The position numbers and the translations under genes are program-made. Shown one piece after another: positions 25,901-28,900 of a stretch of 64,000 bases of DNA. This DNA comes from Gekko japonicus (Eukaryota). The stretch is from assembly GCF_001447785.1 (NCBI RefSeq), contig NW_015172101.1, positions 129,939 to 193,938 on the forward strand, given 5' to 3'. Each line of letters starts with the position of its first letter. Within the stretch, counting starts at the first letter, position 1. The notes under the pieces were generated by a model. It saw nothing but the letters and a program-made list of their open reading frames with translations. It searched no databases and was not told where the DNA came from.

Positions 25901-28900
25901 CTGTGCATGCGCACACATGCGCAGCCAGCTGCCTCGCTCTCCCTTCCATGGCTCCCCCCCCACGTTGCTGCCTGTGTATATTTTTTTCTGCTTCCACAAG
26001 TGTTGCAGTTGTTGGGAGAGAAGGAGTTTCTGCTTTTATAGCGCATGTCGGAGTGGCTCCCAACATCTGCTGCCTGCCACTGCTGATATGAATTAGATCA
26101 TTCAAAGGAATTTTGTGTTGCACAAATGTGCTGTTCTTTCTACATACGTTTTACTCATTGATAGTTTATTCACATTCAACATGTGCCTGCTGCTTTCTGT
26201 TATCTTTCCCCAACTGCTGACTATTTCCCCCCCTGAAATGGTTACATTATTTTTATTAGCTTCCTGAGACTGAAGCAACAAAGTGGCTGACAAAGTTGCC
26301 CACTTAGATATGCAGGAATTCCTTTTAGCGATTTTTGTCCTTATAAAATCATATTTGTGACAAGGATTTGTGGCAAGAGGACAACCAGCCTATTGAGATG
26401 AAAGCTGCTCTGCAGCCATTCTGAAATGCTGCAGGAATCATGCAGTAAACCCTTAACTAAAAAGTTGTCTGAGTATTTATAAGAAATACAGGTGCAAAAC
26501 AGATGCAGTAGCAGAGTCCGATTTGGGATATAGAGTAGGACCAGTCTGGTCTGGTCTTAATTCCAACCTTCCCCCTTATAGCTGGAGGCAGTCAAACTGG
26601 CCCCTTCACACTTACTAATAGAAATTATATGCAACTTTTGTAAGACAACATGTTGTACTCTCACTGTGAGAAAAGACTTTCTTTTCTTTTTTTGGATCCC
26701 CCTGAGGGGAATTTTTTATTGATTTTTTGCAAACTACAAACTACAACCGAAAATATAGGGAGGGGAACTACATCTAGGGAAAAAGAAAAAAGACCCACTA
26801 ATAACTAAAAACCCAAGAGTAGGAGATCAATACATCAGCTTAACTCAATGTTAGTTTTAAAAAGCTATTAAAACAATGAACATAGTCGGCTATGCTAGGT
26901 TAATTATCTTTTAACTATTCATTTAACTGCTTAAAGAAACCCCCTGAGCATTCCAAAATCATTTCAGAGTTTTCAGGCACAATTCAGAGTCCTTCAGCCA
27001 CTATTTATTCTTCTCTTTTCTAATCCTCAATTTATATGCACTTTTGGGGGCAGCCGCCCCCTTTTCAGAGGGTGAGTCCTCGTCCAAAGACCCTGAGCCT
27101 AACTCGTAATCAGATTTGCTTTCTTCCTCTTCCTTCTTGTCCTCAGCTGGCTCCCCGAGCTGTGTTCGCAGAAAATCACGTGCCTTAAGAACAGTTTAAA
27201 GTGTTATCGTGCAGTTTGAAAATGTTGCCTTCTGGGATTAACCATCTATAACTGATCCCATTTGTTTGTAAAAATAGGATTAGTTCTTTATAATTCTTTC
27301 TCTACTTTCTTATGTCAAATGTCTTTTAAAATCCTGATGTTGTTGTCCCCAATTTTCAAGGGAGTTCCCGTAGTTGCTTTCAAAATAGAGTATCTCACAT
27401 GTCTCTTCGAGAATCTGACTACTATTTCCCCAGGCAGATTATTTTTCTTGATGTATAAGGAATAGGACCTGTAGACCACATCCATCTTACTGTAGAGATA
27501 TTCCGCTGTCAAATCTGTCATTGGGGCTATTGCTTCACTCAGTTATTGCTTCAGATTCTCTCCTTTAATTTCCGGGACCCCTTGAAACCATAGGATCAAA
27601 TTAGCTTTCTCCATTTGCAACTGCAAAAGTTGTGACTCTTCCGTGGCTTGCTTCATTTCCAGCTTTTTCTTAATTTTTTTAGTATTGGCGTCCATTTCCT
27701 TCACCTTCTCCCCCATTTGCTCCGTTGCTTTTAAGGATTGAGTCGATTGTAGCTGCTGTTAAGCCAAACTCTGACCAATTACTGACAGTTGTTGCTTAAT
27801 ACTGGTCATCTCATCCAGCAGAGGGCGCAAGGAATCTGCCAACATTTTTGAAAGCTCAGTGGTCTCTTCCATTCGAGGACTACCCACTAGTTTTGCTTTC
27901 AAAAGTTTTTCTTTCTCTGGTTTCTTCCCTGCCATCTTCTTGGATTTGTTTACTTATCGAAAAGTTGCTAAAGTCTCTGATATTCGTCCAAATGCTTATC
28001 TACGCTCTGGTAAGTCTCTGAAAGCAGTTTCAAATGCTTAATTTTTCCACTCCCCCCTCTTTATTCCGTGTTTTTGTTCATGTGCATGGGAGGGCCCCCT
28101 CCCCCGCTCACTTCCCGTCACTCTTTAAGGGGGGCAGCTTTCTTTTTAAATCTTCATACTCGCTTCAACTCGACTCACAGTTTGTTGTTGGCCAACCGGC
28201 CTTGCTCAGCATCAGGTTTTTTTCACCCCATCTCCCACGCTTGTCCCGGTCAGCAGCACTCGTACCATACAGTCACACAGCGGCAGGACCTTCGGGGTGG
28301 TGGAGCGCCTCAATTCTCCGGCATCGCGCCATCGAAGAGGTCGCCCCTCAAAAGCCCCCTGGCTAGGAGCCTTTTACCAAGGCTCCGGGGGGGTCGTAAC
28401 TCGTCGCACCCCCTCCTACATGCTAGTGTGCAGTTTGCATCCCTGGGACGTCTGGGAGATGCATCTGCCTGCGTGTCGCCATAAACCGGAAGTCAAGAAA
28501 AGACTTTCATAACATATTGCAAATTACAGTCTTGGCCAGTGCAGGTTTCACAATTTCATTACATACCCAACTGAAGTAAGGATCTCCTTAAGCAATCTCC
28601 TTCCTTGTTGGTTATCAGATGCCATGCATTTGAAAAGACTTTCATAACATATTGCAAATTACAGTCTTGGCCAGTGCAGGTTTCACAATTTCATTACATA
28701 CCCAACTGAAGTAAGGATCTCCTTAAGCAATCTCCTTCCTTGTTGGTTATCAGATGCCATGCATTTTCCACTGCTTTTCACTGTGTCCAGAGGACTCTAT
28801 TGAGTACTCCTTTTGTGAGCCAGCGTGGTTAAGAACATAAGAGAAGCCAATGCTGGATCAGGCGAATGGCCCATCTAGTCCAACACTCTGTGTCACACAG

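Follow-up and report, generated by a model that had tools for sequence, protein, structure and literature searches.

The question raised by this locus is whether a short, poly(A)-tailed element that carries the first open reading frame (ORF1) of an L1 (LINE-1, for long interspersed element-1) but no second one (ORF2) is a broken L1 or a member of a family of its own. The locus lies in a stretch of 64,000 nucleotides of the gecko Gekko japonicus (assembly GCF_001447785.1, contig NW_015172101.1, positions 129,939 to 193,938 of the forward strand), the whole of which is called the window here and supplies all positions given below. A preliminary description of this sequence had proposed an ORF1-only family resembling the "half-L1" elements (HAL1) of mammals. 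Our analysis makes it probable that the element, copy 1, belongs to an ORF1-only, non-autonomous, HAL1-like lineage that derives from lizard clade-1 L1 and is mobilised in trans by the L1 ORF2 protein (ORF2p). The anatomy that supports a HAL1-type element consists of an L1 5' end, an L1 ORF1 protein (ORF1p), a T/C-rich 3' untranslated region (UTR), an AATAAA signal, an A tail, a target-site duplication (TSD) and no detectable ORF2. The signal and tail are present in copies 1 and 2 and the TSD in copy 1 only, while the junction of ORF1 with the 3' UTR is visible in two of the three family members of the window. The parts of copy 1 are as follows.

26682-28495, minus strand: copy 1, whole unit of 1814 bp between perfect 13-bp direct repeats
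28496-28508, no strand: TSD on the 5' side, 13 bp, exact repeat
27936-28495, minus strand: 5' UTR and putative internal promoter, CpG-rich, its start formed by the terminal motif of lizard clade-1 L1
27001-27935, minus strand: ORF1 for an L1 ORF1p with basic N-terminus, coiled coil, RNA recognition motif (RRM), C-terminal domain (CTD) and acidic/basic tail
26976-27000, minus strand: 25-nt block that follows the ORF1 stop directly and is the same in both copies 1 and 2
26694-26975, minus strand: remainder of the 3' UTR, a variable spacer followed by a conserved T/C-rich end, AATAAA and an 18-nt GC-rich stretch
26682-26693, minus strand: A-rich tail, 12 nt
26669-26681, no strand: TSD on the 3' side, 13 bp, exact repeat

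The boundaries of this unit agree with those first described. The longest exact match flanking copy 1 is the 13-bp AGAAAAGACTTTC, at 26669-26681 and 28496-28508. As a measure of the chance rate, 40-nt zones paired at random 1-2.5 kb apart had at least 13 exact bases in common in 2 of 5000 pairs. In the sense of the element the empty target site reads TTAT/GAAAG and hence TTTC/AT on the cut strand. The L1 endonuclease prefers a T-rich/A junction, to which this site is close, and a TSD of 13 bp also fits. A perfect 135-bp tandem duplication at 28497-28766 overlaps the 5' TSD and leaves it unaffected; it is probably an assembly artefact, because similar near-perfect duplications occur elsewhere in the window. 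These tandem or near-tandem duplications, 97-100% identical (28497-28766, 47453-47858, 39957-40455 and 44251-44922), probably all stem from short-read assembly.

Inside these boundaries, the first letters of copy 1 are T-GACTTCCGGTTTATGGCG, at 28495. Its 5' UTR (27936-28494, 559 nt) has a GC content of 0.53 and is indeed CpG-rich, with a CpG observed/expected ratio of 0.74 as compared to 0.28 for the window. ORF1 runs from an ATG at 27935 to a stop at 27003-27001 and is decayed: two deletions, near 27310 and 27200, shift its frame, and three premature stops interrupt it. The 3' UTR, put earlier at about 300 bp, measures 307 nt, with AATAAA at 26720-26715 followed by the 18-nt GC-rich stretch and then the tail. 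The stretch after ORF1 has 35% GC, and its last part is 48% T.

Copy 2 had been presented as evidence of a shared architecture. The layout from ORF1 to the tail is shared, but copy 2 represents a distant subfamily and not a near copy, with 65% identity to copy 1 over 1474 columns and 81% over the last 155 columns. Additionally, a third member at 7645-8254 had been overlooked.

About 20319-22142, minus strand: copy 2, whole unit, same ORF1-to-tail layout as copy 1
21704-22142, minus strand: copy 2 5' UTR, ~140 nt missing at its start, identity to copy 1 65%
20777-21703, minus strand: copy 2 ORF1 of 308 codons, free of frameshifts, with one premature TAA at codon 217
20319-20776, minus strand: copy 2 3' UTR and A-rich tail, AATAAA at 20360-20355, a ~130-nt foreign repeat inside
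7645-8254, minus strand: copy 3, 5' UTR in full and ORF1 up to codon 19 (ATG 7702), running into an N gap at 7556-7644

Where the 5' end of copy 2 is gone, the element is adjoined at 22143-22400 by a piece of another repeat (matching 12252-12280 and 45234-45278), and because this foreign fragment stands in place of the first ~140 nt it suggests that the end was removed in a later event, whether deletion or insertion. An unrelated repeat of ~130 nt interrupts the 3' UTR of copy 2 at about 20500-20640. This small interspersed repeat (~130-nt core) recurs at 25643-25775, 6911-7021 and 33529-33578, and it gave no Rfam match and no ARAGORN tRNA gene. Searches for a TSD around copy 2 (exact matches of at least 8 up to 24500, mismatched ones up to 26600) and around copy 3 returned only short A-rich chance matches. 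The 5' UTR of copy 3 is 58-61% identical to those of copies 1 and 2, and the three 5' UTRs, mutually 58-65% identical, all lie within 21 kb. The sequence past the gap in copy 3 is unrelated to the element, so the gap probably conceals more than 89 bases. Profile searches of the window revealed no 5' ends, 3' ends or ORF1 pieces beyond copies 1-3. The ORF1 start codon lies within AAGATGGCGG in copies 2 (21697-21706) and 3 (7696-7705), both on the minus strand, with one base different in copy 1. AAGATGGCGG includes the core of the YY1 motif reported for mammalian L1 5' ends (PMC5381506; here and below, statements on published work refer to excerpts of the papers cited).

The ORF shared by copies 1 and 2 encodes an L1 ORF1p, an identity that rests on profile and structure searches. 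The copy 2 ORF on its own matched no L1 family in Pfam, had no match among 2640 candidates in a word-index protein search, and yielded five weak and unrelated matches in a phmmer search of the PDB. A profile built from the two copies recovered 333 relatives at E<=0.001 among 1,835,955,588 proteins and matched human ORF1p structures weakly (best E 0.008). We then aligned 90 rows, comprised of copy 2 and 89 near-full-coverage sequences from the best 150 of the 333 relatives, and the resulting profile matched human ORF1p 2ykp with an E of 6e-15 across coiled coil, RRM and CTD. The Pfam family Transposase_22 was matched by 22 of the 90 aligned rows at E<=0.01, copy 2 itself not being among those, and a separate Pfam scan of relatives gave 8 of 23 matching this family, 3 of them over the curated cut-off. 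A structural model of copy 2 ORF1 (pLDDT 86, pTM 0.67) exhibits a long helix at 26-103 followed by an RRM and a CTD, and the top 11 Foldseek matches to this model are all human L1 ORF1p (best E 3e-9, ~18% identity). Thus the decayed L1-type ORF1 of the preliminary description is upheld by profile, Pfam and fold matches, and the comparison with L1 ORF1p and Transposase_22 proposed there came out in its favor.

Among the relatives, P0005 is intact, 305 aa long and 42-45% identical to the copies; by eye, the first residues of copy 3 are like its N-terminus. In a tree of 53 rows (the first 50 alignment rows, the RRM part of copy 1 and two ORF2-fused relatives, with no labelled Tx1 sequence), copies 1 and 2 and P0005 form a long-branch clade (100/96) among L1 ORF1s. 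The E169-R202 salt bridge of human ORF1p is retained. A further relative, the Gekko japonicus protein P0014, is a distant ORF1 homolog annotated as "apolipoprotein A-IV-like", likely a misannotation.

The parent of this lineage appears to be a lizard clade-1 L1. The 5' terminus of these elements has been described as GACTTCCGGTG-N8-ATGGCG (PMC5381506, Boissinot & Sookdeo), and copies 1 and 3 carry variants of this GACTTCCGGTG...ATGGCG motif in which the spacer is shorter (copy 1) or longer (copy 3) than described. Clade-1 L1s further have a spacer of 0-110 nt before ORF2 and a 3' UTR of 194-570 nt with ~33% GC and T and C tracts, and the RhxxhE motif is rare in the coiled coils of lizard ORF1 (PMC5381506); it is missing from ORF1 of copies 1 and 2. 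Copy 1 agrees with the published clade-1 features except in the length of its 5' UTR. Two relatives, P0021 and P0027, run straight on into ORF2-like sequence, with a Pfam endonuclease match in P0021, and are probably chimeric gene models. The closest long relative of the endonuclease-bearing ORF1 relative is a Varanus protein with endonuclease and reverse transcriptase (RT). The preliminary description had left the donor of RT as L1 or Tx1; the 5' motif and the ORF1 relatives speak for L1 parentage, and a Tx1 origin is unsupported, with all positive evidence from these comparisons pointing towards lizard L1.

No endonuclease or RT sequence had been noticed in copy 1, and further searches agree. 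When a 1275-aa Varanus L1 ORF2 and two partial ORF2s were compared with the window, the only significant match was an unrelated RTE element at 3071-6226, and none of the six frames after ORF1 matched Pfam at E<=0.05. Eighteen tests for ORF2 relics after the ORF1 stop, each setting an alignment with the Varanus ORF2 against shuffles, gave a lowest p of 0.03 in one case. This sole alignment, to a hydrophobic stretch of mid-RT, was rejected as a relic and put down to chance. As a potential RT donor the intact RTE/BovB-like element at 3071-6226 was likewise rejected, as it ends in short AAC repeats and not in poly(A). The window as a whole contains three L1 5' ends, without an L1 ORF2 fragment and without a 3'-only fragment. 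Full L1 families are expected to leave 5'-truncated debris, and the window is unlike that.

The 25-nt block that directly follows the ORF1 stop may be a candidate cis signal or a relic of the ORF2 start. In both copies it is one substitution away from a TAATG stop-start overlap and reads A-E-G-L-stop-I-V-P. This string resembles the start of an endonuclease, and as a guess the block may contain the decayed first codons of ORF2; comparison with the Varanus ORF2 N-terminus gave no support for this.

Comparison of copies 1 and 2 also establishes that ORF1 has been under purifying selection between them. In an alignment of 284 codons, the three codon positions have identities of 0.70/0.79/0.45, and dN/dS is 0.22 at a transition weight of 2 (bootstrap 0.14-0.32; 0.12-0.28 across weights), as compared to a lowest value of 0.62 in 200 neutral simulations. 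dS between the copies is 1.1-2.5, and their synonymous sites are 28-41% identical. Both copies are dead, with decay that the stop counts put roughly at 5-15% for copy 1 and 1-10% for copy 2; in simulations one stop corresponds to ~3% decay and three stops to ~10%. As these counts imply little decay, most of the divergence between the copies would have arisen in functional masters.

Behind the stop, identity of the two copies follows a distinct pattern: 25 of 25 positions in the block, 47% and 45% in the spacer (a forced alignment, near-saturated) and 77% in the last 133 columns. Between AATAAA and the tail, both have the additional GC-rich stretch. From this sequence pattern the most likely history appears to be one ancient loss of ORF2 by internal deletion, before copies 1 and 2 split, after which they descended together for a long time under constraint at the ends. 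Had the entire tail been exchanged recently, the middle would not be saturated. The clade formed by copies 1 and 2 with P0005 (100/96) also speaks for a single origin.

The alternative that survives best, though we regard it as unlikely, is that different autonomous L1 subfamilies each lost ORF2 at one place, by splicing, by recurrent deletion or by recombination of a current 5' UTR-ORF1 onto an old tail, in which case the selection on ORF1 would mostly reflect the autonomous phase. Such repeated origins have a precedent in mammals, where HAL1s arose several times (PMC5753468) and where the 5' 2600 bases of rat RNHAL1 are 98% identical to the active rat L1 (PMC2241872), and a dS above 1 is large for one family. 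However, full identity of the 25 nt after the stop, against synonymous sites at 28-41% and a near-saturated spacer behind the block, is difficult to obtain from separate losses, as is the GC-rich stretch that both copies share between signal and tail.

Rather less likely again is premature polyadenylation, whereby an AATAAA in a long intergenic spacer of an autonomous L1 would yield retrocopies of pre-ORF2 transcripts that are not a family of their own. The conserved 3' end could be such a spacer signal, but the 5' motif and ORF1 indicate clade 1, in which the spacer is short or missing. The spacers of clade-2 lizard L1s are G-rich with about 46% GC (PMC5381506), unlike the T-rich, GC-poor stretch found here, and the lack of ORF2 debris in the window also argues against this explanation. 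We consider it very improbable that a host gene of the L1TD1 kind, domesticated from ORF1, gave rise to the copies as processed pseudogenes: purifying selection, an mRNA-like layout and the existence elsewhere of the intact P0005 would suit such a gene, but the transposon 5' terminal motif is retained, and three 5' UTRs this divergent within 21 kb indicate a high-copy repeat with several masters. Finally, that assembly collapse or a one-off deletion took out ORF2 is scarcely credible, for although the assembly contains N gaps and almost perfect tandem duplications, one of which reaches the 5' TSD, independent collapses or deletions would not give a collinear junction in two copies only 65% alike.

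Several observations weigh against a HAL1-like lineage and have to be set beside the evidence for it. The ORF1-to-3' UTR junction is seen in two copies only and the TSD in one, the tail of copy 1 is only 12 nt long, and copy 3, interrupted by its gap, could be a full L1. The absence of ORF2 was judged from a single distant ORF2 of full length and from two partial lizard-type ones. The autonomous parent was not seen, so that the 3' region is not aligned to a real L1 3' UTR, and the 5' UTR of copy 1, at 559 nt, falls short of the 792-1465 nt of Anolis clade 1 (PMC5381506). Human ORF1p has two conserved salt bridges, one of which includes R215 (PMC6428221), and this residue is replaced by Gly in copies 1 and 2 and P0005; the equivalent site is Arg in 67 of 89 relatives and Gly in 8 of 89, so the change is not unique to their clade. 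The dN/dS value supports selection after the loss of ORF2 only if the loss came before copies 1 and 2 split, a timing derived from the shared junction. Lastly, a conserved RNA fold at the 3' end was unsupported, as predicted folding was no better than in shuffles (z -1.19 and -0.06).

With these points taken into account, we propose the following sequence of events for the HAL1-like lineage. An internal deletion would have joined the end of ORF1 to the 3' UTR once, removing ORF2. The internal promoter in the 5' UTR would then drive a polyadenylated RNA of ~1.8 kb, which the element's own ORF1p may coat in cis, making it a good substrate. The ORF2p of an autonomous L1, the presumed helper, would nick an A/T-rich site, here TTTC/AT, and prime reverse transcription at the target from the tail, leaving the 13-bp TSD. 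Since the unit is short, its insertions would often retain the promoter and could give rise to further masters, and several old subfamilies would thereby be accounted for. A stronger version, which we advance tentatively and with somewhat less than even confidence, is an ancient squamate half-L1 lineage of independent origin and single loss, with several subfamilies at dS >1, a selected ORF1p and two conserved RNA signals, directly behind the ORF1 stop and at the 3' end, that capture ORF2p in trans, perhaps outnumbering intact L1 5' ends in its host. If true, the lineage would have parasitised L1 over a long period and would allow what ORF1p does in cis to be examined separately from ORF2.

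The surroundings of these copies are genic. Sarcomeric myosin heavy-chain exons (Pfam Myosin_tail_1) extend over 12858-52000 on the plus strand; copies 1-3 and the RTE element are all antisense to this gene, and myosin-like exons lie on either side of copies 1 and 2. The RTE/BovB-like LINE at 3062-6300 on the minus strand has an uninterrupted 1051-aa endonuclease and RT frame and a short AAC-repeat tail and looks recently active. RT and endonuclease fragments of another LINE, presumably CR1/L2-like, occur at 9120-9518 and 31422-32090 on the minus strand and have no significant match to L1 ORF2. Palindromic repeats with long inverted arms, resembling miniature inverted-repeat transposable elements, are found at 23928-24075 and 36670-36996.

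How does this element compare with known systems? In mammals, L1 gave rise on several occasions to HAL1, a derivative that has only ORF1 and carries poly(A) and TSDs (PMC5753468, PMC5322556, PMC13756887, PMC2241872, PMC8535693, PMC5786205); therian examples include human HAL1, HAL1B and HAL1M8 and rat RNHAL1 (Smit 1999; Bao & Jurka 2010, via citing papers), and the literature covered describes HAL1 for mammals only. In the literature searched on HAL1 and ORF1-only elements, including excerpts of PMC5203782, PMC5381603, PMC6050309 and PMC4494074, a reptile HAL1 was not found, Repbase, Dfam and supplementary repeat libraries being outside this scope. The gecko element shares with therian HAL1 its L1 derivation, the ORF1-only content, the poly(A) tail and the TSD; therian HAL1 depends on the ORF2p of full-length L1, as the gecko element presumably does. 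It differs in its squamate-type host and lizard clade-1 L1 parent, which point to an independent origin, in an identity of only ~18% to human ORF1p, and in having sequence blocks that are conserved behind the stop and at the 3' end. Unlike rat RNHAL1, which is 98% identical to its active parent (PMC2241872), the gecko copies differ from one another by a dS above 1.

With lizard clade-1 L1, such as the Anolis L1_AC families (PMC5381506), the element has in common the 5' motif GACTTCCGG...ATGGCG, a CpG-rich 5' UTR, an ORF1 of coiled coil, RRM and CTD without RhxxhE, a T/C-rich 3' UTR, AATAAA and an A tail. However, it is 1.8 kb long as compared to 6.2-6.7 kb, has no ORF2 after ORF1 and a shorter 5' UTR, and its ORF1 sits on a long branch with Gly at the R215-equivalent site. 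HeT-A of the Jockey clade and Ag-Sponge of the CR1 clade (PMC5786205) likewise combine 5' and 3' parts of a LINE, retain ORF1 and borrow RT, as the gecko element would, but they have other parent clades and other ORF1 types, and the gecko element has no telomere targeting. L1TD1, a domesticated mammalian L1 ORF1 gene, is also an ORF1-derived coding sequence without ORF2 and under selection; it is a single-copy host gene whereas the gecko element is a dispersed repeat with a TSD and L1 termini.

If this squamate case does descend from a different L1 clade, retention of ORF1 with loss of ORF2 would be a general route to parasitise L1. Deep divergence with a dN/dS near 0.2 would provide a natural experiment on the role of ORF1p for its own RNA when there is no ORF2p to deliver (for background on cis preference see PMC13558583), and on whether a non-mammalian L1 ORF2p reads 3' sequence beyond poly(A). 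HAL1-like elements are easily overlooked, given that the ORF alone fails in Pfam and that one relative is labelled "apolipoprotein A-IV-like". Set among these systems, the element is a HAL1-type element of squamate L1 origin, the design of which is known and which extends the class without founding it.

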